From assembly GCA_965198005.1 (NCBI GenBank), contig CBDAOI010000004.1, positions 2,304,001 to 2,368,000 on the forward strand: 64,000 nucleotides of DNA, read 5' to 3'. A program made the translations under genes and the position numbers. Shown here piece after piece: positions 25,082 to 48,394 of this stretch. Below the pieces are notes generated by a model. The model searched no databases, was not told where the DNA came from, and saw nothing but the letters and a program-made list of their open reading frames with translations. The stretch comes from Spirochaetia bacterium. Lineage in GTDB: Bacteria > Spirochaetota > Spirochaetia > SZUA-6 > Bin103. Each line of letters starts with the position of its first letter. Position 1 is the stretch's first letter.

Positions 25082-25127
25082 TGGTGGGGATGACCAGCAG
25101 CACCCGCCTGATCAGATACGCACGCAC
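25082..25127 (-). pseudogene. 15-codon N-terminal stub of a DppB-type permease
   Basis: GGAGG RBS, then MRAYLIRRVLLVIPT, matching the paralog starts MRPYIIRRLLLVIPT and MKAYVIRRLLLIVPT; rest deleted. Confidence 0.75.
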
Positions 25128-25227
25128 GTCAGCTCACCTCCACACTCGGTTGCACAAGAAAACGGGGTGGCAGGTCGGCAGGTCGTCCCCGCCACCCCGC
25201 GTCCGTTGGACCGTGTGCCGGCCGGGG

Positions 25228-26569
25228 TCAGTACCCCATTTCCCGCTTCAGGTCCTGGTCGAGCCAGATCCGCACGAGAACCTCGTTGCCAATGTCCCCG
25301 ATGGTCCTCTCGCCGTTCCAGCCCTTGACCCAGGGGTTGGCCAGCTGGAAATTCGGCGCCTTGTGGCCGTAGACCTGGAAGTGCTGCCGCATGATGTAAT
25401 CGTCGAACTCTTTCATGATCGCCGGTGGACATCTCGTAGAGCCCGCGGGCACGGCGATCGACCCAGGCGCCGGTGTCCATGACCGTGATCTCCACCTCCA
25501 CGCCGATTTCCTTCCAGTAGCCGGCCACGATCTCGACCCATCCGAGGTCGATCACATCGCGGTGGTCGTAGGTGACCTTGAACCGCACCCCGGCCGCGCC
25601 GCGCGCGTAGCCGGCCTCGTCGAGCAAGCGCTCGGCGTCCTGCGGATTGTAGGAGTACTCCGCCTGCAGATCCGCGGGCCGCTCCTCGAACGGAGTGTGC
25701 ATCTCGCCGAGCGCGGCGCCGACCCAGCCCTGCACCGTCGGGTAGGCGTACCCGCCGAAGTAGCTCTCGTTGATGGCATCGCGGTCGATGGCCATGTTCA
25801 TGGCCTTGCGCACGCGGACATCGTCGAACGGCGGCCGGCGGATGTTCATGCCCGAAACCTGAAAGGCGCGATCATAGAACGGGAATGCCTGAATGTCGGG
25901 GTTGGTCTCCGGTGGCAGGATCCAGACGCCGACCTCGGTGAGTACGTGGTTTGGCAAATCCAGGCGCGGCTCGGTCAGCTTGAACTCGACCGTGTACCGG
26001 TCGGTGGCCTCGATGAACTCCCACGGAAAGTTGCGGAGGGCGTAGGTGTACTCCGGCTTCCAGTCGAGCAGGCCACCGATACGGCGGTAGGTCCAGGCGA
26101 CGTCTTCGGCGGTCAGCTCGCGCCCGTTGACCGGCGGCTTGTCGTGCCAGTAAACGCCCTGCCGGACCTTGACGATGAACGTCTGCGGGTCGGGATTCGA
26201 CCAGCTCTCTGCCAGCCACCCGGTGAGTATCCGGAGCGGTCTGTACCAAGAGGTAAAGTCCCACTCGTCTCGCGGCGTGGCCCAGTTGGCGTGCGCCAGC
26301 TTCTCATTAACCGTCTGGATCTGAAAGCCGGCCCAGTGTCCGCCGATCGACGGATCCTGGTCCAAGAGCTCGTTCTTGGATGCGATGGTGAGGGTGCCGC
26401 CGTACTCGGGCGCGGTCACCATCTTGCCGGTGGCCGGGTCGCGCACCATCTCTTTCTCCATCGCCGCGGCCGGCTCCTCTTCCCCGGCCGCGCTCGCCCA
26501 GATGCCGGTCGCGGCCAGGACCAAGACCAACGCAACCGCGAAGATCATTTTGATGTTTACAATGTGCAT
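25228..26569 (-). pseudogene. family 5 (peptide/nickel) SBP 1, internal in-frame deletion near 25905 and frameshift near 25420
   Basis: APEYGGTL, LAESW, WHDKPPVNGRELTAED, PPFDDVRVRKAM. ILPPE is joined directly to TNPDI, so more than 100 aa present in the paralogs are missing. The C-terminus IWLDQDLKREMGY is in another frame. Confidence 0.85.
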
Positions 26570-26704
26570 ACGTAACTCCGTATGTTGGTTTCTATTGAGA
26601 GTATTGCGGAGCGACTTGCCGCTCCCTGCCTACTCTCGCGCCCGCAACGCAGGCGGCCAGTCAGAGTCATATTTGTGACGCGCGCGGCGTGTGACTCACC
26701 GGGT

Positions 26705-26740
26705 TCACGCCGCGCGCGCGTGCGGTTCTTTGAGTATCAT
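26705..26740 (-). CDS. leader peptide uORF2 MILKEPHARAA
   Basis: AGGAGG 5 nt before the ATG; conserved in the copy at 46455-46490. Confidence 0.65.
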   Translation of the reverse strand: MILKEPHARAA

Positions 26741-27021
26741 TTGCACCTCCTCATTTGGGTTCTTGGGCCATAGGGTGGCCTGCCAGATGCCCGACGGCGC
26801 GCACCGCCATGCGGGGAGGTAAGTCGGCCGAGCAACGAATGTGATGGACCGGCAACGCCGGCGGTCGGTTCTGCGACGGTGAGTTGGGGCGCGGGATTCC
26901 AGGACCGTTGCGGTGGTCAGCGAAAGAACGTGGACTGAGCCGGCGACACACGCAACGGGCCGCTACCCCGGTGCTGAAGGCGAAGGCCCCCGCGGGGCGA
27001 TCAGCCCGAGCGGCTAGTGAT

Positions 27022-27141
27022 CTACAGGATGTATGAGAGAAGTGGGGGGGTACGGGGTACGATATGATGTACCGGCTGCGTCACTGTCAACCGGCCACTC
27101 CGGCCACTGCGTTGAGTGTCGTCATGGCGCTTCGTCGGCAT
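27022..27141 (-). CDS. putative uORF1 MPTKRHDDTQRSGRSGRLTVTQPV...
   Basis: Frame and motifs shared with the other leader copies; starts about 20 nt below the -10 box. Confidence 0.45.
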   Translation of the reverse strand: MPTKRHDDTQRSGRSGRLTVTQPVHHIVPRTPPLLSYIL

Positions 27142-27163
27142 CCGTTCAACCCCTGAATTCCTC

Positions 27164-27192
27164 ATCGTTCCACGCTCGCCTAAAGATGTCAA
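27164..27192 (-). promoter_or_regulatory. sigma70-like promoter TTGACA-N17-AACGAT
   Basis: Read from the sequence; equivalent position in five leader copies. Confidence 0.6.
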
Positions 27193-27277
27193 GCGCCGGC
27201 TCCGGCCGTCCCGGCCGTCCGGCCGGGGGCTCCGGGGGCAGACGGCCACGCCGGGCTTCGGGTATCCTACAGGCCCG

Positions 27278-28276
27278 ATGCACGATGAGAATTACAAGCG
27301 GATCTTTGCCTTCCCGCGCGTGATCGAAGATCTCCTGCGCGCCTTCATTCCCGGCGACTGGCTCGAGGAGGTCGACTTTGCCACCCTCGGGAAACTGTCG
27401 ACCGAGTACATAAGCGACGAGCTGCTCAAACGCCACGGCGACAACGTATGGCGGATGCGCTTGCGCAAGAACTGGCTGTATCTGTTGTTGCTGGTGGAGT
27501 TCCAATCGACCGACGATCCGTTGATGGCGTTGCGGATACTCACCTACACCGGGCTGCTGTACCAGGAGTTGGCGCGCAACGGCCAGCTCGACGCCGACGG
27601 CCGGCTGCCCGCGGTGCTGCCGCTGGTGCTGTACAACGGCGACGAGCCGTGGGTGTCGCCGCTGCAGATGGGTGAACTGATCGCGCCGGTGGGGCCGTCG
27701 CTGGCGCCATATCAACCGGAGCAGCGTTGCTTCGTGCTTGACGAGCGGCGCCTACAAGCGGACGATTTACCGAGCCGCAACCGGATGAGCGCGGTGATCG
27801 CGTTGGAGCAGAGCCGATCACCGCGCGACGTGGCGCGGGTGGCGGAGATGTTGGCAGCGTGGCTGCCGGACCTGCAGGTGCGGCGGGCGTTCGCGGACTG
27901 GATGCGGCAGATCGTGGAGCGGCTGGTGCCGAGCGGCGTGGAGTTGCCGCCGATACGGAAGTTGGAGGACGTGAGTATGACGTTGGTGGAACGAGCGGCC
28001 GAGTGGTCCAAGGAGTGGCTGAAGGAAGGCCTTGAGCAGGGGATCGAGCAGGGGATCGAGCAGGGGATCGAGCGCGAACGAGTGCTGCTGTGCCGAATGA
28101 CGACGGCGCGCTTCGGCGTGGCCACCGCCGAACGCTTGGCGGAGCTGTTGGCGCCCATCACCGACACGGAGCGTCTGGCCAACGTCGGCGATTGGCTGGT
28201 GCAGTGCGACACCGGCACCGACTTCCTCGCCCGCGTGGGCGCGGCGCCGGCCGGAGGGAACTCGGACAGATCCTGA
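27278..28276 (+). CDS. Rpn/YhgA-like recombination-promoting nuclease (putative transposase)
   Basis: HDENYKRIF, DNVWR, LLVEFQSTDDPLMALRI, LPLVLYNG, C-terminal (EQGI)n 12-bp repeats. Confidence 0.9.
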   Translation: MHDENYKRIFAFPRVIEDLLRAFIPGDWLEEVDFATLGKLSTEYISDELLKRHGDNVWRMRLRKNWLYLLLLVEFQSTDDPLMALRILTYTGLLYQELARNGQLDADGRLPAVLPLVLYNGDEPWVSPLQMGELIAPVGPSLAPYQPEQRCFVLDERRLQADDLPSRNRMSAVIALEQSRSPRDVARVAEMLAAWLPDLQVRRAFADWMRQIVERLVPSGVELPPIRKLEDVSMTLVERAAEWSKEWLKEGLEQGIEQGIEQGIERERVLLCRMTTARFGVATAERLAELLAPITDTERLANVGDWLVQCDTGTDFLARVGAAPAGGNSDRS

Positions 28277-31429: not shown

Positions 31430-32025
31430 GGACTTGCCCGAGCGTTTTCTCGGCCTCTAACGCCGCTCGCAAGTCGTCTAGGGTGGTGACGTTGTAGGAC
31501 CGCACGCCGAAGCCGCGCGCTACCTGGGCGAAATCGATGTGGTGGTAGTCGGTGGAGACGTAGTTCTGGTCGTAGTAATCGCGCTGTACGTGTTTGATCC
31601 AGCCGAGGGTGTCGTTAGTGAAGATGAAGGTGAGGATCGGCAGCTGGGCGCGCGTCATCACTTCCATCTCTTGCAGCGAGTAGCCGAAGCCGCCGTCGCC
31701 GGCGAAGTGCAGAATGCGACCCGGGTTGTCTTGCGCCCGCCGCGCCAGTGCGACTCCGACGGCCGCTGGGCTGCCCCAGCCAAGCCCGGCGAGGCCGCGC
31801 TCCGGCGCCCGGCGGCTGCGAAGGTGAGGTAGCATGCGGCCCAGCCGGAGGCGAGGCTGGCATCGGCTACCGCAGGGGCGCGGTCGGCTCACGGGCGGAG
31901 TCGGTCATCTCCTGGTACCAGCGGACGCGGGCATCGGTGTAGCCGGCCAGGTCCCAGCCGGTGCCGGTTGCAGAGCTTCGCCGGCGGCCAACACGGCGTC
32001 GAGGCCCACGGCGGTGTCGGCGATG
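31430..32025 (-). pseudogene. thiamine-PP enzyme (acetolactate synthase-like) fragment
   Basis: GLGWGSPAAVG, GDGGF...FTNDTLGW TPP motif; N-terminal part missing. Confidence 0.75.
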
Positions 32026-32127
32026 GTCACCGCCAGCCGGTCACTGCGCTGGCTGTCATCATGGCGCTTCATCGGCATCCGTCGAACCGTGAGCTGGTAG
32101 TATGGGGCCCGGCCCAAGAAACGTCAA
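32025..32127 (-). repeat. 5' part of the SBP-leader family (promoter TTGACG-N17-CATACT plus uORF1 start MPMKRHDDSQRSDRLAVT)
   Basis: Close match to 46909-47010; truncated onto the TPP-enzyme fragment. Confidence 0.75.
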
Positions 32128-32190: not shown

Positions 32191-33948
32191 TCACCGCCGC
32201 ACGGCATCGCAGAACACCATCTCCCAGCCGTGAAACACCACGATCAGGCCGATGAAACGTACCCCCGGAAACTGCCGCGCCAGCCGCTCCTCCGCCAGAT
32301 ACCGCTCGAGCTGCGCCGCCGCCTCTCCGGCCGCCGCCGCCACGGCGGCCTCGTCCGCCGACTCGCTGCGCTTCAGGTACTTGAGCTCGATCAGATAGCC
32401 GCGCTGCAGGTTCGGGTAGCGCGCCACCAGCGGTTCCAGGCAGATGTCCGCGTGGCCCTTCCCCAGCTCCGCCTCCGAGCGGAACACGTAATGATCGGCC
32501 ACGCTCAGATAGGCGGCGAGGAACCCCTGAATGACTTTCTCCCCGCTGATGTAGTCGCGGATCCCCGTCTGCCGCGCGATCGCCTCGCTCAGAAACTCGA
32601 ACGCCGGCCGCCACTCGCCTTCGGTGGCCATCCGCAGCATCAGTTGCTCGAACCGGAACAGGTTTACTGAAAACACCTCCACGTCGCGGTAGCCATCGCG
32701 CAGGAAGCCGTACATCAGCCGCTTCACGGTCTGGTTCGGAATCGCCAGCCGGGGCACCCGCTCCACCACGTCGCGGATGCTCAGTAACCCAAAAAAGTGC
32801 AGCAGCGAGAGAAAGTTCTCCGGCTTGGTGAGGTCCTTCAGCGGAAAGCCGGGCTGGATGCGGGTGTCCACCTGCTCCTCGCCAATCACGTCCCGCAGCA
32901 GGTCGAAGTTGCCGTTGAGCTGCCGGCCGGTCACCAGCAGGTGGCGCAGCTTGCCGTAGTCGATGCGCACGTTGGTGTCGATCAGGTAGGTCGGCACGTC
33001 TCGATTCGGAATGGAATGCTTCAGGTAGTAGAGCACCATGTCGGTGTTGTACAGATCGGTCTCGGCTTCCTCGGAGAAGCGGTAGCCGTTGTACCACTGG
33101 CCCATGATGCCCATGGCGGTCCCGACCTCCTGATTGAACACGCCCAGGCCGCGGTAGGTCTCGACCAGGTGCCGGACCTCCGACTCGGTGAAGCCGACCA
33201 TCTCGTTGAAGTCCTGCTCCAGGCTGATGTTGGTGCCGATGTTGAAGCCGCTGGTCACGTCGTCCATGGTGACCGGCGACACGCCGGTGATGAACAGCCG
33301 CTCAAGACCGCCGCCGCTGCGGTCCGCGCCGCCCTTGAGGGTGGCGAAGAAGTTGCGATAGAAGCCGCCGCCATGGGTGAAGGAGTGGTAGGCCTCCGCG
33401 CCGTCGTACGCCAACACCGTGTTGGCGAAGTTGTCGTACTCGTCGATCAGCACGTACAGCGGGATGTCGTGGTCGCCGGCGTACACGAACAGCTCGGACA
33501 GCTTCCCGGCGATCGAGGGCGGCGCCAGGATGTCGCGCACCGCCGCTGCGGGAAACAGGTCGGGATGGCGCCGCAGCCTACCCCGCAGCTCGGTGAGGCA
33601 GTAGGTCTCGAACTCCCGCTCCAGGGTCTCCAGCTTGTCGTTGACCATCGAGAAGTTGAAGCGCAGGGTGACGTAGCGGCTTTGGTCCCCGGTCGGGTCC
33701 TGCCCGATGTCGGTGCCGGCGAAGGTGGCCTCGAAGCCGTCGGCCCAGAAGCGGTCGTAGTAGTTTTCGAGCAGGGAGATCCACAGCGACTTGCCGAAGC
33801 GGCGCGGGCGGATCAGAAAGGCGTAGCGCTCCTCCCCCAGCCGCCGCAGGAAGCGGGTCTTGTCGACGTACAGCCACCGGTTCAAGCGGATGCGCCTGAA
33901 GTCGGCCTCGCCGTAGGGAATGCGCGGGTGGGCGGGTGGCGTGCTCAC
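32191..33948 (-). CDS. AAA-ATPase-like + PD-(D/E)XK nuclease protein (DUF1703/PDDEXK_9 type)
   Basis: IPYGEADF, YVDKT, RPRRFGKS, LIDEYD, WYNGYRF, GHADI...LIELKY. Confidence 0.92.
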   Translation of the reverse strand: MSTPPAHPRIPYGEADFRRIRLNRWLYVDKTRFLRRLGEERYAFLIRPRRFGKSLWISLLENYYDRFWADGFEATFAGTDIGQDPTGDQSRYVTLRFNFSMVNDKLETLEREFETYCLTELRGRLRRHPDLFPAAAVRDILAPPSIAGKLSELFVYAGDHDIPLYVLIDEYDNFANTVLAYDGAEAYHSFTHGGGFYRNFFATLKGGADRSGGGLERLFITGVSPVTMDDVTSGFNIGTNISLEQDFNEMVGFTESEVRHLVETYRGLGVFNQEVGTAMGIMGQWYNGYRFSEEAETDLYNTDMVLYYLKHSIPNRDVPTYLIDTNVRIDYGKLRHLLVTGRQLNGNFDLLRDVIGEEQVDTRIQPGFPLKDLTKPENFLSLLHFFGLLSIRDVVERVPRLAIPNQTVKRLMYGFLRDGYRDVEVFSVNLFRFEQLMLRMATEGEWRPAFEFLSEAIARQTGIRDYISGEKVIQGFLAAYLSVADHYVFRSEAELGKGHADICLEPLVARYPNLQRGYLIELKYLKRSESADEAAVAAAAGEAAAQLERYLAEERLARQFPGVRFIGLIVVFHGWEMVFCDAVRR

Positions 33949-34069: not shown

Positions 34070-34303
34070 TGAGAGGCGGTGGGAGTGCTGGGACGTGTCG
34101 TCTCGCATCACCGTGCCCATGAGAATGTTCAACAGGTGGGGACGCGAACCTGACGCGAACCTCAAGCTGACGCGCGCGAGGTTGCCCGGCTGGAGGGGGT
34201 GGGAGCGACAAGGCGCTGCTCCAGGGCCGTCATTCGCCGGTAATTGGCGCTCCAGTCTGCCGCGGCGCGTCCCCTCTGTGTTGAACGTGCGCACGGTCAC
34301 CAT
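34070..34303 (-). pseudogene. mixed remnants: AAA ATPase start MVTVRTFNTEG (34272-34303) and uORF1-like MRDDTSQHSHRL (34073-34108)
   Basis: Matches the starts of the ATPases at 7150 and 56530, and the leader copies at 37546 and 42812. Confidence 0.5.
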
Positions 34304-35823: not shown

Positions 35824-37345
35824 TCAGCCTCCCATCTCTTGCTTCAGATCACTATCAATCCAGATGCGGGCGAAGATGGCCGCTGCGCGAGCCAGTCCCA
35901 GTTCGACTTCGCCGTTATAACCTTTGATCCATGGCTGGGCTGCATTAAACAATGGAACTTTAGGACCCCATATGTACCACTGCTGCTCGATCATGTACAT
36001 ATCTGCCTCTCTAACCAGCCTCTTCTGCTCCTCAGGGGTAGTCGCGGTTTCGGCGGCTTCTACCTTGGCGTCCATCACAGGGTCCTGATGTCCATTGCGG
36101 TTCGCAGCATCTCTCGAGTGAATATGGACCAATAGGGGGAGGGGCGACGAGTCATATCCGAGATCCATAGAAATCATCCCTTCATAAGTACCTTCCGTCA
36201 TTAGCCCCGCCCACGGAGTTTCATCATGTACCTGAATCTCCACATCTACACCAATCGCTTTCCAGTATTCGACGGCTATTTCCTGATAGCCTACGTCGAA
36301 TCGCTGCAAGTGGTTCAGGACGGTCTTGAATCGAATGCCATCCGCGCCGCGCGGATACCCCGCCTCATCCAGCAGCTTCTCCGCCCCTTGCGGGTCATAC
36401 CGATAGCCTTGCTTGACCGCCTCGGGCCATTCTTCAAAGGGGACATAAAACCCCGTCAGACTATCCCCGATTCTCCCCTGGGGTTGCCACTTGGCAAAAC
36501 CCTTATAGTAGGTATTGTTGATGGTCTCCAGGTCAATGGCCATCTGCATGGCTTTGCGCACCCGGATGTCGTTGAAGAGCGACTGGTTGCGCAGGTTGAA
36601 ACCAACAGAGGTCTCCGAGCGGAAGTACCACGGGTACAACGTGATCTCGGGGTTGCTCCGTTGGAGGCTCTCTACCTGGCCGATATCCCCCAATTGAGTG
36701 TCGCCGGCTAAACCTGTGATATCATGCTTACCTGAGCGAAACGCCGCCAGCCATGTCGCTTGTTCGGGCATGATCACTCGCCTCAGCTGGTCAATATAGG
36801 GCAAGCGGTTCTGTGGGTATTTTTCGTCGGTGCCCCAGTAGTCCGGATTCTTGGTATAGGTCAGAGAGCTGCCCTTGACCCAGTCCGTCAGCATATAGGG
36901 CCCGGTGCCGACCAGGTTCCTCCAATCGTGCACGTTGCCATGCTGCTCGATCACCTCGGGGGGCATAATGAAATGAAACCAGTGGGAGACGATCGTCTCA
37001 AGCGCGTCGTTGCGTGGCGCCTTCAGCTTGAAAACAACCGTGGAATCGTCGATGGCCGTAATCGATTCCCAGGTCGCGGCATTCATCGGGTCGAAGGGGC
37101 TAGGTTCGGTGAAGCCGCTGCCCAGACCCGTATAGCGGTTAAAGTTATATTCTACATCCTGGGCGGTCAGCTCCCGACCGTTCATCGGCGGCTTATTATG
37201 CCAGCGAACGCCCGGGCGGATGTTGATAACGATCGTAGTGGCGTCAGGCGTTTCCCAGCTTTCCGCCAGATTCGGTCTCATGGCAGAAAACGGGACGTAC
37301 CTGCTTCCGAAGCCAAATTCATCCCTGTCTATTCCCCAGTTGCCG
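35824..37345 (-). pseudogene. family 5 SBP 2, 5'-truncated (no signal peptide)
   Basis: In-frame GNWGIDRDE upstream of the first ATG; LAESW, GTGPY, RLPYID, DIRVRKAMQMA; joined directly to the leader G-tract at 37360. Confidence 0.85.
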
Positions 37346-37357
37346 ACTTTCTAATCT

Positions 37358-37647
37358 CTAAAGGGTACAGGAGGGGGTAGCAGGGCGCACCGGCTGCGTC
37401 ACCGCTCGGGGCTTGACGGCATCACCGGCGAGGTTCGAGCCTATCGGTGGGATGGGCCACCCGCTGCACGACCCTGCGGGGCGGCGCCTCGGGCGTCGGT
37501 CTTGGCCCAACCGGTGGCAGCGCTGGGTAGTGTCGTCACGCACCATCCGCAGGGTAACACCCGCGTGGCATACAGTCAAATGGCTGGAATTCCCCATTCG
37601 TCCGAGTCTCAAGTCGTCACTACACCACAGCGCTCGACACCGGTCAA
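37358..37647 (-). repeat. SBP-leader family, 5' half (promoter TTGACC-N17-TGTAGT plus long-form uORF1 37358-37546)
   Basis: Homologous to 42600-42800 (GGTGGGATGGGCCACCCGC...GGGCGGCGCCTCGGGCGTCGGTC...CCAACCGGTGGCAGCGCTG). Confidence 0.7.
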
Positions 37648-40383: not shown

Positions 40384-42173
40384 CTAGTACCCCATTTCTT
40401 TCTTCAGCGCACTATCGATCCAGAGGCGGGCAAACAGGGTATTCGATTCCACCCTGGACAAGGCCCCGTCCAGTTCACCGTTATAGCCGACGAGCCATGG
40501 CTGGGCCAAATAGAATGAAGGGGATTTTGGACCATATATCAGCCAGTGCCGCGACATCGCGTACCTATCTGCCTCGGCAATCAGCCGCTGCTGCTCCTCA
40601 GTCGTACGGGCTCCATTGACGGCGTCAACCCTGACATCCAGCTCAGGCCACTGGGATCCGCCGCGGTTCCACTGGTGATCCGTGTGATAATTGTTTGCCA
40701 TATAGACAGGGTTGAATTGGTTGGCCGCAATACCGCTGTACATGCCTTCCCCAGTACGCGAGAACATCCTCTCGTGATATTCGGCGTAGGTAAGAGCATC
40801 AATCTCGACCTCGACGCCAATTTCCCCCCAGTAGGCGACAGCTATTTCCGAATAGTCCAGGCTTGCCCAAGACCCGTAGTTCAGGGTGGTCTTGAATCTC
40901 GCACCGTCGGCGCCGCGCGGATAGCCAGCCTCGTCGAGCAGCTTTTCGGCAGCTTCCGGGTCATACCGGTAGTATTGCTTGACCTCTTCGTCCCACTCCT
41001 CGAAGGGGACGAAGAACCCGTTCACCCCTACCAGCCCGTGAGGTGTCGGATCTGCAAGTCCCTTCCAGTACGTGGCCGCGACGTTCTCGTTGTCCAGCCC
41101 CATCTGCATGGCGCGGCGCACGTTGATGTCGTTAAAGGGCGGCCTGCGATGGTCAGGAACAAAAGAAGACACCGACCGAAAAAAGACAGTGTGCGCCGTG
41201 ATCTCGGGGTTTGTCTTCCGGAGGCTGTCTATCGAGTCCAGAGAACTGGCCCCCGATCTGAAATCAAGCGTGCCTGAGCGCAGTGCTGCCAGAATCGATC
41301 CTTCCTCGGTCATAATCGCAATCTTCACCTCGTCGACGTAGGGCAGGCGGTTCTCGGGGTACTTTTCGTCATGGCCCCAGTAGTCGGGATTCTTGATATA
41401 GGTCACGCTGCTGTCCTCGACCACGTCCGTCAGCATGAAGGGGCCGGTGCCGACCAGGTTCCTCCAGTCCTGAAGGTCGCCATGCTGCTCGATGACCTCG
41501 GGCGGCAATATGAAAGCAGAGATCTCGACGAGCACAATCCGCATCGTATCGAGGTATGGCTCCTTCAGCTTCATTACAACCGTCGCATCGTCGGTGGCCG
41601 TTATCGATTCCCATGGCACGGCGATGAGATCGGCGGCGTTGGGTGCGGCGCTCGGGCCGGCGTCGGCGAAGCCGCCCATACCCAGCATGCGGTGGAAGTT
41701 GAATACTATGTCGTGGGCAGTGAGCTCCCGACCGTTCATCGGCGCCTTATCATGCCAGTGAACGCCCTTGCGAATGTGGAAGATATAGGTCGTGGTGTCA
41801 GGCTGTTCCCAGCTCTCCGCCAGCCGCCCTATCATGAGAGACGTGGGGAAGTAGAGCGTTTTCAGCTCCGATACGTCTCTATCTACTCCCCAGTTCACGA
41901 TACCGAGCTTCTCGGTGACTCCGCCTCCTGGGTTGGCCACATAGTTGAAATAGGGGTCATGCGTATTGGCTGCGGAACCGGGGCCCCCCAAAACGGTTAG
42001 TGTCCCGCGTACTCCGGCGCGGTCACCATCTTGCCGGTGGCCGGGTCGCGCACCATCTCTTTCTCCATCGCCGCGGCCGGCTCCTCTTCGGCGGCCGGGC
42101 TTGCCCACAGGCCGGTTGCGGTCAGTGCGAGACCACACAGGACGGCGAGTGAGGTGCGAACTACGAAATACAT
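40384..42173 (-). CDS. family 5 SBP 3, full length with a 1-nt frameshift near 42008
   Basis: ATG 42173 with AGGAG RBS gives MYFVVRTSLAVLCGLALTATGLWASPAAEEE...APEY; the rest is in the 40384 frame. Confidence 0.85.
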
Positions 42174-42863
42174 CAGATAACTCCTGTTGCTCGAGAGTAC
42201 TGATAATCGACTGCCGGCCCCTCGCCTACTCTCAAGCTATGCCCGCTTCAACGCCGGCGAGCACAAGCGAGGGCGACACCGTGGGTACCCAGGCGGCACG
42301 GCCGCTTGGGGACGAGTCCGTGAGCTAGCCATGGCTAGTCGTAGCCGGTCTTGGGTGCCATCCCATCCTCCTTTGACGTGCGCGCACCACCGGCCTCGGG
42401 ATCGCGCCGGGACCTGCGTCCCAGCGTCCACGCGGCTGGCGAGGCGAGTTGGATTGCCCGGCAACGCCGGGAGCGGAGTTGATGAACGGGTTGATGAGGC
42501 CTGGTGCGCCGGTCTCGGCGCTGAACGGACGCCCTGTAGGCGCCGGGTCGGTTAGCTGTGTTGGTGTTTCTCGGAGGTCCCGTGTACCAACGGTCCCGTG
42601 GGGGGGGGTACAGGGGGGGTAGGACGCGCCGGTTGCGTTGCCGCTAGGAGCTTGTCGGCTTCGCCGACGAGGTCCGAGCGTACCGGTGGGATGGGCCACC
42701 CGCTTCGCGGCCCTTCGGGGCGGCGCCTCGGGCGTCGGTCTGAGGCCACCAAGCGACGATGGGGCGCCAACCGGTGGCAGCGCTGAGTAGTGTCACTACG
42801 TGTCAGTTGCATCCTTTCAAACCCGTCGCGCTTACCATGGCACACCTGTGGCAAATACGTCAA
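42174..42863 (-). promoter_or_regulatory. SBP 5' leader, divergent copy (promoter TTGACG-N18-CATGGT, uORF1 42552-42812, AGGAGG-led uORF MAPKTGYD 42335-42361, GAGAGTA/TACTCTC stem)
   Basis: Shares the G-tract/CCGGTTGCGT block, the CGGTTAG block, the GATTGCCCGGCAACGCCGG block and the SBP-proximal stem. Confidence 0.6.
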
Positions 42864-43291
42864 TAGGGCGTGTAGGGCGTGGTGCCGTTTTGGTGCCGTG
42901 CCGGCGCGGCCGGCCCAGATCCGCGCCCCCCTTTCAGCAGTATCGCCGGCAGCCGCTGCAGTTGTTGCGAGCGAGGGTCCACCTCGAAACCGCCGGACTC
43001 CAGGGCGGTCACCCCAAGGAGCGGTTCCGCCTCCGCGTCTCCAAAGATGACCGTGCCGCCCACGGTCTTTCCCTCGAACTCGATCTGCGCAACCGTGGTG
43101 TCCATCGTGAGCGCCGTGCCGTCCGCGAGCACGTACTCATCATGAGACTTGGGCTCAAGACCAATCGCTTGCAGATGCCGGCGCGGCGCCAGCGAGTTGA
43201 AAGCGCCCGTATCCACCAGGAACCGTCCGGTCCAACTCTTCGCCGGTGCCGCGGGATTGCGGATCGTCACGTCCACGTACGTCGCTCCCAT
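42860..43291 (-). CDS. clan AA (retropepsin-like) aspartic protease
   Basis: [28 protein letters not shown]. Confidence 0.85.
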
Positions 43292-43409
43292 GGTTGTGCG
43301 ATTACCATAGTAGCGTAGGCGTGGCTGGTCAACCTGCACGTACGGCCGGCGCGATGCCGGTCGACGTGTGGGGCATGTGATTGCCGCGACCACCCTGCCG
43401 GTAAAGTCC

Positions 43410-43923
43410 TCAAGCGACGAGCCCGTGGGTGTCGAGGCTCTCGCACAGAGCACACGCGCGGTCCTTGTGCGCCGCCACCACGCCCGGGCGGTGATGCTCC
43501 GGGCGTCGCTCGATCCAGCCGAGCAACGCGAGAGCGCGCACGACGACCAACATCGGCACCAACGCCGCATCCTCGTCCGGCAAGGCTCGCACCCGCCGGT
43601 AGCCGCGCAGCAGCGACGCGAAGTTCAGGTCGAAGCGCTCGGCCGGATGCCCAGTGAGCACCACCGCCAGGTCGTACTGGTGCCAGCCGAAGCCGGAGTC
43701 GTCGAAGTCGATCACCGCGAGCCGATCGCCGTCGACCAGGACGTTGTCGAAGTGCAGGTCGGCGTGGATCAGGCTGTAGGTCCGCGCGTCGACGCCGTAG
43801 CGGTCGAGCACCGCGCGGATCGCGTCGCGGGTGCGCACGACCAGCCGGCGCTCCGCGCGCGACAGCAGCGGTGAGTCCCAGAACCGACCCCAGAACGGCG
43901 TCTCGCCGAAAAAGCCTGCGACG
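43410..43923 (-). pseudogene. 3' half duplicate of the phosphotransferase at 47396-48394
   Basis: Near-identical DNA to 47396-47909; LIHADLH, IDFDD. Confidence 0.85.
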
Positions 43924-44718: not shown

Positions 44719-44885
44719 GAGGCATTCTCCTGGACACCGACATCGCCATCGACTACCTGCGTGGAGTCCAGGCAGCGGTCGATTTCGTCAAGCAGCATGA
44801 GAGGGAGATTTCGCTGTCGGCCGTGACGGTTGCCGAGCTCTTCGCAGGTGTGAGGGACGGCGACGAGACGGTCAAGCTGGAGGAC
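44715..44885 (+). pseudogene. vapC: VapC PIN toxin, 3'-truncated
   Basis: ILLDTDIAIDYLRG...SAVTVAELFAG, then fused to the truncated end of SBP 4. Confidence 0.8.
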
Positions 44886-44889
44886 TCTG

Positions 44890-46318
44890 ATCCTTTACCT
44901 GAGTGTTCCACGTCGGCCCGTCAGTAATCACCAACTCAACATCAACGCCAATCGCATCCCAGTAGGCGATAGATATTTCTCCATAGTCAGAAAACTGTGG
45001 AAAACTGTGAGACAATATGGTCTTAAATCTGATGCCGTCCGCGCCGCGCCTGTATCCGGCCTCATCAAGCAACGCTTCTGCCCCCTCCGGGTCATACCTG
45101 TAGTATTGCTTGATTTCTTCGGGCCAGGTTTCAAATGGCGTGCTCCACCCAATTTGATGTTCAGCTATTAACCCTTGAGGTTGCCAGGAAGCAAAACCCT
45201 TAAAGAAAGTTTCGCTAATTGTCTCAAGGTCCAGTGCCATCTGCATTGCTCGGCGCACTCTTATGTCGCTAAAGGGCGGCTCGGTTACGTTAAGGCTGAA
45301 GGCATAATTCGACCGTTGATAAAACGGCCACAACTCGAGGTCGGTTGTCTTCTGGAGGCTCTCAAAGTCGTCGAGAGAATTCATCGACCAATGGGTGCCC
45401 ATACCTCCAAAACCAACCTTGCCCGTGCGCAGCGCCGACAGACGTGTTGCTTCGTCTAATATAAAGAGGCCCTTTAACTCGTCAATATAGGGCAAGCGGT
45501 TCTCCGGGTATTTTTCGTCGTAGCCCCAGTAGTCAGGATTCTTTTTCCAGGTCATAGAGCTGCCGTCGATCCACTCAGTCAGCATATAGGGCCCGGTGCC
45601 GACCACGTTTCTCCAATCCGCAACGTCGCCGTGTTCCTTGATTACCTCGGGGGGGTAATATCCACGTCCAGGCGTCGTCGAGTATGATTTTCAGCGCACT
45701 GAGCATTGGCTGCTTCAGCTTAAAGACAACCGTCCAATCGTCGGTGGCTGTTATCGATTCGAATGTCACGTTGGGGATACTTCCAAAACGGGCGGGACGT
45801 TCGGTGAAGCCGCTGCCCAGAGTTGCGAGACGGTGCCAGTTATACTCTATGTCCTTGGCAGTTAGCTCCCGGCCGTTCATCGGTGCCTTATCATGCCAGT
45901 GAACGCCCTTGCGGATCTTGAACACATAAGTTGTGGCGTCGGGTTGCGACCAGCTTTCCGCCAGCTGCCCTATGAAGAAAGATTCAGGCACAACACCGCC
46001 GGATTTAATGTCATATACGTCCCGATCTATTCCCCAGTCCGCTTGGGCTAGCCTCTCATAAACGCCACTGACGAGGAACCCCGCGTGGTGACCAGTAATC
46101 GACGGGTCCGGTCCCTCGGACTCGGGGCCCCAGAGCAACATGAGTGTCCCGCCGTACTGCGGCGCGGTCACCATCTTGCCCGTGGTGGGGTCGAGCACCA
46201 TTTCCCTCTCGGCGGCGGCTGCCGACTCCTCTTCTGCGCCAGCGGCCCACAGGCCGGTGGCGGTCGGGGCCAGGACCAACGCAACCGCGAAGGTCATTCT
46301 AATGATTGCAATATTCAT
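44890..46318 (-). pseudogene. family 5 SBP 4, frameshift at a G-run near 45650 and 3'-truncated
   Basis: MNIAIIRMTFAVALV...APQYGGTL, LAESW, GTGPY, PPFSDIRVRRAM; stops about 100 aa short of the paralogs. Confidence 0.85.
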
Positions 46319-46454
46319 ACGCTTCTCCGTATGTAGATTTTTTGAGAGTATTGCGGAGCGACTTGGCGCAGCTCCCTGGCTCCTCTCGCGCCTGCCACGC
46401 AGGCGGCCAGTCAGAGTCGAGTGGGTGACACGCGCGGCGTGCGACTCATCGGGC

Positions 46455-46490
46455 TCACGCCGCGCGCGCGTAGGGTTCTTTGAGCAACAT
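46455..46490 (-). CDS. leader peptide uORF2 MLLKEPYARAA
   Basis: AGGAGG-N5-ATG; 9 of 11 aa identical to 26705-26740. Confidence 0.65.
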   Translation of the reverse strand: MLLKEPYARAA

Positions 46491-46847
46491 TTGCACCTCC
46501 TTTTTCTGTAGGTTGCGGCAATTGACAGTGAGGGAGCTGCGTCACAACGCCACCCGCGGCGGCGGTCGGCGCAGCAGCAAGTCTGATTGACCGGCGACGC
46601 CGGCGGTGGGTCTTGCCGGCAGTGAGTCGCGGCGCGGATCCGGCTCGGTCGCGGTCGACGATAACGGCGCGGGCGGTCCGCATGCCGGTTCGCCGATGGA
46701 CCGAGCCGGTGAGGAGCAACGCAGCCAGGCGGGATGCATTCGCCGCTCGAATGCAGGCGGAGTTTCGCCACGGGCTGCGAGCTACGGCGGTAGTGAAGGC
46801 GACGGTGGTGTGCGCGGGGTCGCGTACGCGGCGATCAGCCGGAGCGG

Positions 46848-46958
46848 TTAGTTGTTCGTCGGTTCGAAAAGTGTGTGTGTGGGGGGGGGGGTAGAATGCA
46901 CCGGTTGCGTCACCGCCAGCCGGCCACTGCGCTCACTGTCATCATGGCGTTTCATCAT
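46848..46958 (-). CDS. putative uORF1 MMKRHDDSERSGRLAVTQPVHSTPPPTHTLFEPTNN
   Basis: Hand translation; stop lies in the conserved CGGTTAG block, as in the 42552 copy. Confidence 0.5.
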   Translation of the reverse strand: MMKRHDDSERSGRLAVTQPVHSTPPPTHTLFEPTNN

Positions 46959-47194
46959 CGATCCGTTGAATCGTGGGTTCAAAGTATAGGGCCCGGCGCA
47001 AGAACGTCAACCGCGATTCTGGCCTCGTGCACCTGCGTGGCTGCCGCCTAGCCCGCTGCGCGACCGCCAGCCGGTGGCTGGGGTGGAGCGCGTCCGTACC
47101 CGTGAGTGCAAGCGGCGACCTAACCCGGTGCGCCAGCGCTAGCCGGCGGCTGGGCTGGCTAGTGTCAGTCGCCATACGCGCACGAGTGTAGCCG

Positions 47195-47326
47195 GCCGCC
47201 CACGGTCTTTCCCTGGAACTCGATCTGCGCAACCGTGGTGTCCATCGTGAGCGCCGTGCCGTCCGCGAGCACGTACTCATCATGCGACTTGGGCTCAAGA
47301 CCAATCGCTTGCAATGCCGGCGCGGC
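47195..47326 (-). pseudogene. internal fragment of a second copy of the aspartic protease
   Basis: Near-identical to 43056-43188. Confidence 0.85.
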
Positions 47327-47395
47327 ACCGGCCGGCGCGATGCCGGTCGACGTGTGGGGCATGTGATTGCCGCGACCACCCTGCCGGTAAAGTCG

Positions 47396-48394
47396 TCAAG
47401 CGACGAGCCCGTGGGTGTCGAGGCTCTCGCACAGAGCGCACGCGCGGTCCTTGTGCGCCGCCACCACGCCCGGGCGGTGATGCTCCGGGCGTCGCTCGAT
47501 CCAGCCGAGCAATGCGAGAGCGCGCACGACGACCAACATCGGCACCAACGCCGCATCCTCGTCCGGCAAGGCTCGCAGCCGCCGGTAGCCGCGCAGCAGC
47601 GACGCGAAGTTCAGGTCGAAGCGCTCGGCCGGATGCCCGGCGAGCACCACCGCCAGTTCGTACTGGTGCCAGCCGAAGCCGGAGTCGTCGAAGTCGATCA
47701 CCGCGAGCCGATCGCCGTCGACCAGGACGTTGTCGAAGTGCAGGTCGGCGTGGATCAGGCTGTAGGTCCGCGCGTCGACGCCGTAGCGGTCGAGCACCGC
47801 GCGGATCGCGTCGCGGGTGCGCACGACCAGCCGGCGCTCCGCGCGCGACAGCAGCGGTGAGTCCCAGAACCGACCCCAGAACGGCGTCTCGCCGAAGAAG
47901 CCTGCGACGTCGAATGCGTGTCGGGTGAAACCCGCGGGCGCCGCCCACCCGCTCGACTGATTGTGGACCGTCGCCGCTATGGCCCCGATCTCATCGAACT
48001 GCGGCAGGTAGGCGTCCGCATCGGCATCTGCCAGCACGCGACGGATCGGCGTGCCTTCGATCCAGCGCGTCACGCCGGCGTAGCGTCGCTCGCCGTCGGC
48101 GGCGACCACCTCGACGTAGTTGCGGCCGCCGTTCGTGGTCACGCCGCGGGGCACGTCCATCCCCGCACCTGCCAGTGCGGCGGTCCATGCGCGCTCCGAG
48201 TCGAGCTCGGCGAGCGTGTGATAACCCGGCCGGTGCAGGCGCAGCACGTAGGCGTCGCCATCGGTCCCGTCCACCCGGAACGTGACGTTCTCGGAGACGG
48301 TGACCAGCGACAGCGCCCCGCCGGTGAGCCCGAACGCAGCCATCGCGGCTTGAGCCGCGCCGCCGTAGCGCTGTTCGATCGCTGCGCTACCCAC
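47396..48394 (-). CDS. aminoglycoside-phosphotransferase/homoserine kinase type II family kinase
   Basis: [37 protein letters not shown]. Confidence 0.88.
   Translation of the reverse strand: MGSAAIEQRYGGAAQAAMAAFGLTGGALSLVTVSENVTFRVDGTDGDAYVLRLHRPGYHTLAELDSERAWTAALAGAGMDVPRGVTTNGGRNYVEVVAADGERRYAGVTRWIEGTPIRRVLADADADAYLPQFDEIGAIAATVHNQSSGWAAPAGFTRHAFDVAGFFGETPFWGRFWDSPLLSRAERRLVVRTRDAIRAVLDRYGVDARTYSLIHADLHFDNVLVDGDRLAVIDFDDSGFGWHQYELAVVLAGHPAERFDLNFASLLRGYRRLRALPDEDAALVPMLVVVRALALLGWIERRPEHHRPGVVAAHKDRACALCESLDTHGLVA

Follow-up and report, generated by a model that had tools for sequence, protein, structure and literature searches.

A candidate ribosome-dependent attenuator family heading peptide-importer operons in sponge-associated spirochaetes

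The DNA analyzed here (the window) is a 64,000-nucleotide stretch of the genome of a Spirochaetia bacterium (assembly GCA_965198005.1, contig CBDAOI010000004.1, forward-strand positions 2,304,001 to 2,368,000). At window positions 26570-27192 it carries, on the minus strand, a leader that precedes a gene for a family-5 solute-binding protein (SBP; 25112-26569, minus strand), and we find this leader to be one copy, in a somewhat decayed state, of a long and translated control region that fronts dozens of SBP operons. All leader parts given below lie on the minus strand. The leader opens with a promoter-like unit A (27164-27192), in which TTGACA (27192-27187) and AACGAT (27169-27164) are separated by a 17-nt spacer and which may act as a promoter. 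The upstream open reading frame uORF1 (27141-27022) starts with MPTKRHDD..., has 39 codons and a TAG, forms the start of the leader open reading frame (ORF) and belongs to the class of copies that stop early. Within it lies a poly-C tract of seven C (27044-27050), which gives proline codons in whichever frame it is read. The conserved block CTAGCCGCTCGGGCTGATCGCC (26996-27017), listed as CGG(C/T)TAG in an earlier first-pass annotation made from the sequence alone, holds TAG and TGA in two frames and leaves the third frame open; its anchor, CTARCCGC, is present in 46 copies of the family, and the block may serve as a frame check. Module B (26756-27021) is C-rich, G-poor and, in this copy, untranslated; its P2-like hairpin GCCGGC-GUU-GCCGGU (26848-26862), the second conserved block of the first-pass annotation, is conserved in the alignment with a second full leader at 46319-47010.

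Module B is followed by AGGAGG (26751-26746) and uORF2 (26740-26705), which reads MILKEPHARAA and a stop. The 5' arm of P1, a 13-bp G+C hairpin (26679-26718), includes the final uORF2 codons and the UGA stop. A candidate pseudoknot (26664-26697) would pair GAGUC in the P1 loop (26697-26693) with GACUC (26668-26664). Next come P2, a 7-bp hairpin CGCCUGC-GUU-GCGGGCG (26639-26655), and P3, a two-tier hairpin of GAGAGUA/UACUCUC around GGAGCGG/UCGCUCC with invariant internal loops (26597-26637). The Shine-Dalgarno sequence GGAG (26579-26576) and the ATG (26569-26567) of the SBP gene close the leader. The gene itself is degraded and matches the Pfam family SBP_bac_5 in two stretches. On reading of the minus strand, the part-by-part description in the first-pass annotation proved accurate, and so did its view of 26570-27192 and 46319-47010 as colinear homologs: blastn aligned the two at 76% over 326 nt and 67% over 159 nt, with conserved blocks and indels between them.

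The host genome comprises 4.9 Mb in four contigs. With one paralog as tblastn query we detected 186 SBP loci, 143 of them with an N-terminus, together with 164 OppB-like and 153 OppC-like hits; most of the SBP proteins share 41-57% identity with one another. This is an extreme expansion of one importer family for a 4.9-Mb genome. The last ~165-180 nt of the leader ahead of the SBP start, which we term module C, are present in 75 of the 143 paralogs with an N-terminus, at 72-91% identity and ending 0-35 nt before the ATG; an OppB-like gene lies directly downstream in 69 of these 75. A covariance model, R1, built from 29 module C copies of eight genomes, gave 89 matches in the own genome, and within the window it matched only 26593-26755 (196 bits) and 46340-46505 (157 bits). 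Seven of ten same-genus genomes contained 184 further matches (64, 43, 35, 34, 5, 2 and 1); the other three contained none, nor did 13 sister-genus genomes, and blastn with the leader found no match in 17 further genomes of the order. The alignment from the R1 search, which mixes duplicate loci and reverse-strand palindrome hits, was left out of the counts. An exact degenerate pattern for uORF2 and the start of P1 occurred at 32 places in the species-genome collection, all in four Spirochaetia metagenome-assembled genomes (MAGs), and parts of the leader stretch are present in sponge metagenome and metatranscriptome runs.

The proposal that the element is undescribed held up. Rfam had no match at gathering score in the whole window and no credible one at E ≤ 10 in 26400-27400, where the best was symR on the opposite strand, with 21.4 bits vs a gathering score of 61. 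A full-text literature search for 'MILKEP' returned no paper, and a literature listing on sponge spirochaete symbionts contained nothing concerning leaders.

The uORF2 is present in 73 of the 75 own copies. Its product is MILKEPHARAA in 39, MILKEP followed directly by a stop in 11, MTLKEP in two, and a close variant of these in the others; altogether, 13 of the 73 end in Pro-stop, and the remainder run five codons further. When codons 1-6 of 111 distinct copies from eight genomes were compared with the consensus, 73 differences were synonymous and 14 non-synonymous, where the neutral yardstick is that 10 of 45 possible single changes are synonymous; these 87 differences are not independent events, the copies being related, but their direction is unambiguous. 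Third positions hold 71 of the 88 base differences in these codons, and variability at codon positions 1, 2 and 3 is 0.023, 0.013 and 0.116. For codons 7-11, the sequence is dictated by the 5' arm of P1. Because the codon differences are mostly synonymous, uORF2 must really be translated, and we conclude from this codon pattern that it is a coding sequence for a conserved hexapeptide, MILKEP.

The first-pass annotation would have been refuted by conservation no higher than at neutral sites of the duplicated loci, but module C is far more conserved than both the mature coding sequence and third codon positions. Median pairwise identity among 58 full-length paralogs is 0.864 in module C, 0.778 in the first 45 codons, 0.612 in the mature coding sequence and 0.566 at third codon positions, and module C exceeds the coding part in 1650 of 1653 paralog pairs. 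Its variability depends on position, rising from 0.03 in the Shine-Dalgarno sequence and 0.065 for the stems to 0.17 for hairpin loops and 0.28 for linkers and flanks, and it reaches 0.4-0.6 in the flanks just 5' of the module. Mean module C identity is 0.860 between copies of the own genome vs 0.848 between own and other copies, and when 49 foreign copies were compared, 18 of 62 own copies had their nearest relative in another genome. Since identity within the genome equals that between genomes, selection is favoured over gene conversion; the conservation pattern argues for purifying selection and does not fit homogenization by gene conversion.

RNAfold recovered P1, P2 and P3 in the 26570-27192 copy (-80.2 kcal/mol, z = -3.0). 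Across 29 copies from eight genomes, 93.6% of cells in the helices are paired, compared with 27-58% in slid controls, and changes on both sides of a pair are seen in five pairs, a level met by none of 500 shuffles. Helix 1 (P1) is 93.9% paired over the 29 copies, with both sides changed in one pair; helix 6 (P2) is 99.4% paired and includes a pair that is U-G in 19 copies, C-G in nine and U-A in one; an inner pair of P3 is G-C in 15 copies and G-U in 12. Stem variation in module C is mostly of this G-C to G-U kind, which is tolerable only in RNA of the minus strand, so that the structure is strand specific. The ~85 nt from the 3' strand of the pseudoknot through P3 are near-invariant in 66 distinct copies, including single-stranded linkers and the P3 internal loops, which hints at an RNA-recognizing partner and leaves room for a riboswitch or protein operator as an explanation. 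Behind P1 the tail is enriched in T, with 4-6 T in the first 10 nt in 50 of 71 copies of a genome that is 66% G+C. No alternative (antiterminator) pairing was found in the RNAfold prediction. In the predicted fold the SBP Shine-Dalgarno sequence lies in an A-rich, unpaired stretch; as it is unmasked, control of transcript elongation seems likelier than masking of the start.

The pseudoknot pentamers GAGTC (26693-26697) and GACTC (26664-26668) both fit GANTC, and no other pentamer of module C varies so little; a role at the DNA level, for example in methylation or protein binding, is conceivable. Two other candidates were rejected. An internal promoter within module C found no support in a strict sigma-70 scan, and hexamers picked by eye fit poorly. 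The P2-like hairpin is not a dispersed repeat: of 97 motif hits, 48 lie upstream of SBP genes (43 being P2 itself), and the remaining 49 are about as many as a reversed-motif control gives (46).

The upstream half of the leader is built from repeated units. Unit A, ~125 nt long, forms 52 arrays of 1-7 tandem copies in the genome (for example C4:2048942-2049809 and C4:409012-409630), and an SBP start lies at most 1.5 kb downstream of 36 of them. The consensus of 102 distinct units reads GTTGACA-N15-TGC-AAGCTT, then GACGGATGGTG and ATGAAGCGCCATGAYGACAGTCAGCGCAGTG, encoding MKRHDDSQRS; the uORF1 core ATGAAGCGCCATGAYGAC is conserved throughout, with peptides such as MKRHDDSQRS. Each unit has a start codon, and as we read the consensus, TGA is found in the core in the other two frames, where an out-of-frame ribosome would stop. 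That unit number varies among paralogs suggests gain and loss by unequal recombination. As for the sigma70-like promoters proposed in the first-pass annotation, TTGAC stands exactly at 27192, 47010, 42863, 37647 and 32127, and by eye an nAnnnT hexamer can be read 16-18 nt 3' of each of the five; a strict sigma-70 scan of 26400-27400, however, returned no promoter.

In the frame of uORF2, at least 100 codons are open upstream in 45 of 74 copies, compared with 14 and 8 copies for the other two frames. No stop occurs in 110 upstream codons of this frame in 40 of 70 copies; the other five frames give 14, 7, 3, 6 and 0, and shuffles 9%. Among 25 distinct copies with a recognizable uORF1 core, uORF1 and uORF2 are fused in frame through the poly-C tract and module B in 13, the fused leader ORFs having 116-168 codons and, in one case, 37; the other 12, both full window copies among them, contain an early stop. 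When a long tract (9-28 C) is changed by one C, five of these 12 become fused and four more become ORFs of 124-180 codons (nine of 12 in all). The 26570-27192 copy minus one C gives an ORF of 124 codons, which ends with TGA at 26753-26751 on the uORF2 Shine-Dalgarno sequence. Poly-C tracts of paralogs range from 5 to 28 C and read as consecutive proline codons within the predicted uORF1; those of the window occupy 27044-27050 (7 C), 46881-46891 (11 C) and 42600-42608 (9 C). As judged from these reading frames, about half of the copies that show both have a single long leader ORF that starts as uORF1 and finishes as uORF2.

Over 330 nt, 51 of 70 own copies and 16 of 27 foreign copies, the latter picked for likeness to the 26570-27192 copy, keep one or more sense frames open, as against 9 of 70 and 4 of 27 on the antisense strand and fractions of 0.32 and 0.27 among shuffles. 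The C/G ratio of the leader, taken in 78-nt windows, is 2.0-2.4 at 27084-26981, around the poly-C tract, and 1.65-1.9 at 26954-26825. In composition, the C-rich, G-poor module B is what one would expect where Rho loads, and the genome has a Rho gene (PF07497, 117.6 bits, in a 583-aa open frame). RNA-library contigs from four metatranscriptome runs of three studies cover module C and the signal-peptide region, mostly as pieces of paralogs, and one 1476-nt RNA contig carries the P1 region internally. A pattern scan of metagenome contigs for the poly-C flanks of the 26570-27192 locus gave no matches. Recent duplicates within the genome yielded one informative trio, in which 2 of 13 difference blocks fall at poly-C tracts, too few to count.

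The other leaders of the window are of two families. The full leader at 46319-47010 (minus strand) belongs to the same family as that at 26570-27192; it has module C at 46340-46505 and a poly-C tract of 11, and the SBP gene behind it (44872-46318) is frameshifted and truncated. The stretch 42174-42863 (minus strand), which the first-pass annotation had taken for a partial or divergent copy, instead represents a second family of leaders, similarly laid out, and lies upstream of an SBP-OppB-OppC locus. In its part at 42174-42380, a Shine-Dalgarno sequence precedes a micro-ORF, MAPKTGYD, whose stop lies inside the perfect palindrome CTAGCCATGGCTAG; this and the MILKEP family have no more than the GACTC motif and the outer stem of P3 (GAGAGTA..TACTCTC) in common. 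Likewise, 37358-37647 is not a copy of the MILKEP leader but a truncated remnant of the 42174 type. The supposed partial copy at 32025-32127 comes down to an isolated 52-nt fragment of unit A with the uORF1 start (32037-32088, minus strand), 85% identical to 27100-27151, and 34073-34108, suggested as a possible copy, has neither a match nor a TTGAC. The gene next to the orphan fragment (32191-33948, minus strand) is not an SBP gene, as had been considered, but encodes an AAA-ATPase_like/PDDEXK_9 protein, and a YhgA-like Transposase_31 gene (27116-28276, plus strand) is divergent from the 26570-27192 leader; recombination-type nucleases therefore stand among the SBP remnants. Two segments, 43055-43642 and 47195-47628, lie just upstream of the 42174 and 46319 leaders and are 98-99% identical; they overlap an aspartyl-protease-like ORF, and their duplication is much younger than the adjoining leaders.

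None of the four family-5 SBP genes between 25 and 47 kb is intact. The gene at 25112-26569 has two internal gaps relative to a full-length paralog and a frame change near its 3' end (tblastn covers query residues 39-215, 328-475 and 545-607, the last piece in another frame), and no OppB gene follows it. The first ~90 codons are missing from 35824-37281. In 40384-42173 the signal peptide and the remainder of the gene are in different frames, and the signal-peptide part stops at TAA 41999-41997, shortly before a run of six G; decay of the gene, a further slippage site or a fault of the assembly might explain this break. As the 26570-27192 copy fronts a broken SBP gene, the locus is probably a relic of the system, to go by its sequence, and family-level conclusions rest mainly on intact relatives.

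The conservation of the leader, the MILKEP coding signature, the potential for structure, the fused-ORF pattern and the presence of Rho are directly established. We propose that together they reflect ribosome-dependent attenuation with a slippage-prone poly-C switch, and we consider the chances about even that this reading is right and that the element is a lineage-specific, modular, translated 5' leader of SBP-OppB-OppC importer operons in sponge-associated spirochaetes. A complete leader would begin with 1-7 tandem units, each with a promoter-like TTGACA-N15-TGC-AAGCTT and a leader ORF start (MKRHDD...). There would follow the slippage-prone poly-C tract, poly-proline when read; the C-rich module B, which tends to stay open in a sense frame; a strong Shine-Dalgarno sequence and the end of the leader ORF, MILKEP with a stop or with HARAA-stop, this stop being at or inside the 5' arm of P1, with a T-enriched tail behind; and then P2, P3 and the SBP start. 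A translating ribosome would shield the C-rich leader RNA from Rho and, by stopping or stalling on MILKEP, would hold the 5' arm of P1 open, so that RNA polymerase could read into the operon. If the poly-C length put the ribosome out of frame, it would halt at the two-frame stop block immediately behind the tract; with the C-rich RNA then bare, transcription would end early. Each operon would in this way receive a heritable and reversible on/off or dimmer setting from the length of its poly-C tract, and possibly from the number of its promoter units; a physiological input through MILKEP and P1 would act as a second layer over the poly-C layer. Transcript ends, termination, stalling and actual slippage are steps that we infer; regulation itself and the choice among family members that the first-pass annotation had envisaged are likewise putative. 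That annotation is partly supported as a whole: a conserved, strand-specific, structured leader with a translated micro-ORF agrees with its cis-regulatory, translation-coupled RNA, but the family must be raised from five copies to ~90 per genome. More speculatively, and with more doubt than belief, we picture a bank of 75-150 peptide-importer operons, at least about two dozen of them switchable individually by poly-C slippage and perhaps by gain or loss of promoter units, with MILKEP-hairpin attenuation as the read-out.

A number of observations weigh against ribosome-dependent attenuation. Both full leaders of the window front degraded SBP genes, and because copies are kin by descent, the counts overstate their independence. 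The covariation proposed as a check in the first-pass annotation is present, as described above, but thin, at 7 cells in the five pairs, which is due to the uniformity of the leader family; the pentamers GAGUC and GACUC of the pseudoknot, complementary and nearly invariant in 105 distinct copies, show none. P1 lacks a canonical U-tract, a tail beginning with TTTT or TTTC being found in a minority of 71 copies, and the tail in the 26570-27192 copy is GTCACAAATA. No rut-like stretch lies directly behind the uORF2 stop, where the C/G ratio is 0.8-1.1 and P1-P3 form in the predicted fold. In the 27 foreign copies the preference for the frame of uORF2 is not replicated, frame 0 being open in five and frame +1 in 12, and the lengths of module B gaps have no clear multiple-of-three bias (39/38/25). 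The middle of the long ORF shows no amino-acid conservation, with per-position differences of 0.149, 0.180 and 0.205 and 24% of codon differences synonymous; an open sense frame without a conserved protein would point to selection on the act of translating module B, not on the product. Poly-C lengths come from a single MAG assembly and may include homopolymer errors. Finally, no RNA contig extends over 26772-27233, and no transcript start or end can be read from the contigs.

Other explanations were considered for the same leader. Module C might chiefly serve to bind a small ligand or a protein that recognizes RNA, as a riboswitch- or operator-like element addressing all operons at once through translation or mRNA stability, with the micro-ORF as part of the read-out and the upstream modules as promoter and spacer. 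The ~85 near-invariant nucleotides, linkers and P3 loops included, are more than a plain hairpin attenuator would need; the outer P3 stem is shared with the second family in spite of its different micro-ORF, and the leader contains three GGA-containing sites. On the other hand, Rfam offers no match even at E ≤ 10, no candidate partner or ligand has been identified, the SBP Shine-Dalgarno sequence is not visibly sequestered in the predicted fold, and neither the MILKEP coding signature nor the fused long ORF is accounted for, which leaves a binding site of this kind unlikely, although worth keeping in mind.

We regard as improbable the idea that leader and signal peptide are a homology block without regulatory role, kept alike by recombination between paralogs and serving or reflecting the duplication and reshuffling of SBP cassettes. 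In its favour, the window contains mosaic duplications together with numerous remnants of SBP genes, recombination-type nuclease genes adjoin leaders, and the signal-peptide region is also unusually conserved (median 0.778 vs 0.612 in the mature part). Yet genome-specific homogenization is not seen (0.860 vs 0.848, with 18 of 62 best matches foreign), and a homology block would account poorly for position-specific conservation, the synonymous-type changes of uORF2, G-U tolerant stems or flanks of 0.4-0.6 variability. The long ORF from uORF1 to MILKEPHARAA could also be an ordinary gene for a small, fast-evolving Pro/Arg-rich protein that is co-expressed with the SBP and often frameshifted, given that 13 of 25 copies are continuous, both terminal ends are conserved and openness of the sense frame is enriched. 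We think this very improbable: the middle lacks protein-level constraint (~24% synonymous, with a weak position bias), Pfam gave no family at E ≤ 1 for two translations of the long ORF, half of the copies are interrupted, a conserved Shine-Dalgarno sequence precedes the last 6-11 codons, and the end of the ORF is embedded in a conserved hairpin.

Attenuators with upstream ORFs are known operon by operon in model bacteria. Here one design, not in Rfam, fronts a large share of ~150 paralogous importer operons in an uncultured symbiont lineage and joins in one leader a conserved micro-ORF peptide, a multi-hairpin RNA and a slippage-prone repeat within a long ORF. If ribosome-dependent attenuation with a poly-C switch is true, the family would be a natural case of stochastic, per-operon metabolic tuning, MILKEP would be a new short peptide candidate for ribosome arrest, and we would have a handle on how 186 SBP loci, an extreme expansion of transporters, are managed within 4.9 Mb. 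In the more speculative picture of individually switchable importers, the logic of contingency loci would apply to nutrient uptake and not to surface antigens, giving a clonal symbiont population a mixed set of importers.

Several known systems resemble parts of the proposed one. In the E. coli tnaCAB leader (TnaC) and in the related speFL and cruR systems, uORFs act with Rho-dependent termination (PMC12360218, PMC8429421). Our leaders are similar in their short conserved uORF, in the encoded Rho and in the proposed decision on read-through by a terminating or stalled ribosome; the micro-ORF is under peptide-level selection, and Pro-stop is found in 13 of 73 copies. They differ in that no rut-like stretch lies right behind the uORF2 stop, the C-rich stretches being upstream in module B; most copies extend HARAA beyond the Pro and stop within a 13-bp hairpin; and a long upstream ORF, poly-C and tandem promoter units are present, in dozens of copies per genome. 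In the mgt leaders of Salmonella, several short ORFs with consecutive Pro codons slow ribosomes and couple translation to leader structure and read-through. The long leader, more than one short ORF, consecutive Pro codons and, as proposed here, translation coupled to structure are common to both. The mgtCBR and mgtA leaders have the proline-codon uORFs mgtP and mgtL and show dependence on elongation factor P; PMC3641672, PMC5299641, PMC6460261 and PMC5021804 deal with these leaders. The proline run in our leaders is a C homopolymer of 5-28 nt that would also shift the frame, the ORF can span the whole leader (~140 codons), and there is no sequence or Rfam relationship.

Stochastic control involving Rho is known at the invertible fim and flgB switches (PMC12360218), where it is brought about by DNA inversion, whereas in our leaders the repeat is inside the leader ORF. 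PMC12721329 reports for Haemophilus a simple sequence repeat acting jointly with an RNA element of the 5' untranslated region. Like the contingency loci based on such repeats, the leader contains a slippable homopolymer in which a one-base change alters the reading frame (9 of 12 copies); unlike them, the putative slippage would affect ~25 or more metabolic importer operons and not surface antigens. The leaders of the his, trp and leu attenuators are translated, repeat a single codon several times in a row and form a hairpin that shares its 5' arm with the last part of the leader ORF; hisL is listed in a table of the review PMC12360218. The predicted leader ORF of our family likewise repeats one codon (Pro), and its end is overlapped by the 5' arm of P1. 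In contrast to the amino acid attenuators, our leaders have no clear terminator/antiterminator pair and no canonical U-tract; their leader ORF is 10-20 times longer, and what it would control is a set of importers and not a proline pathway.

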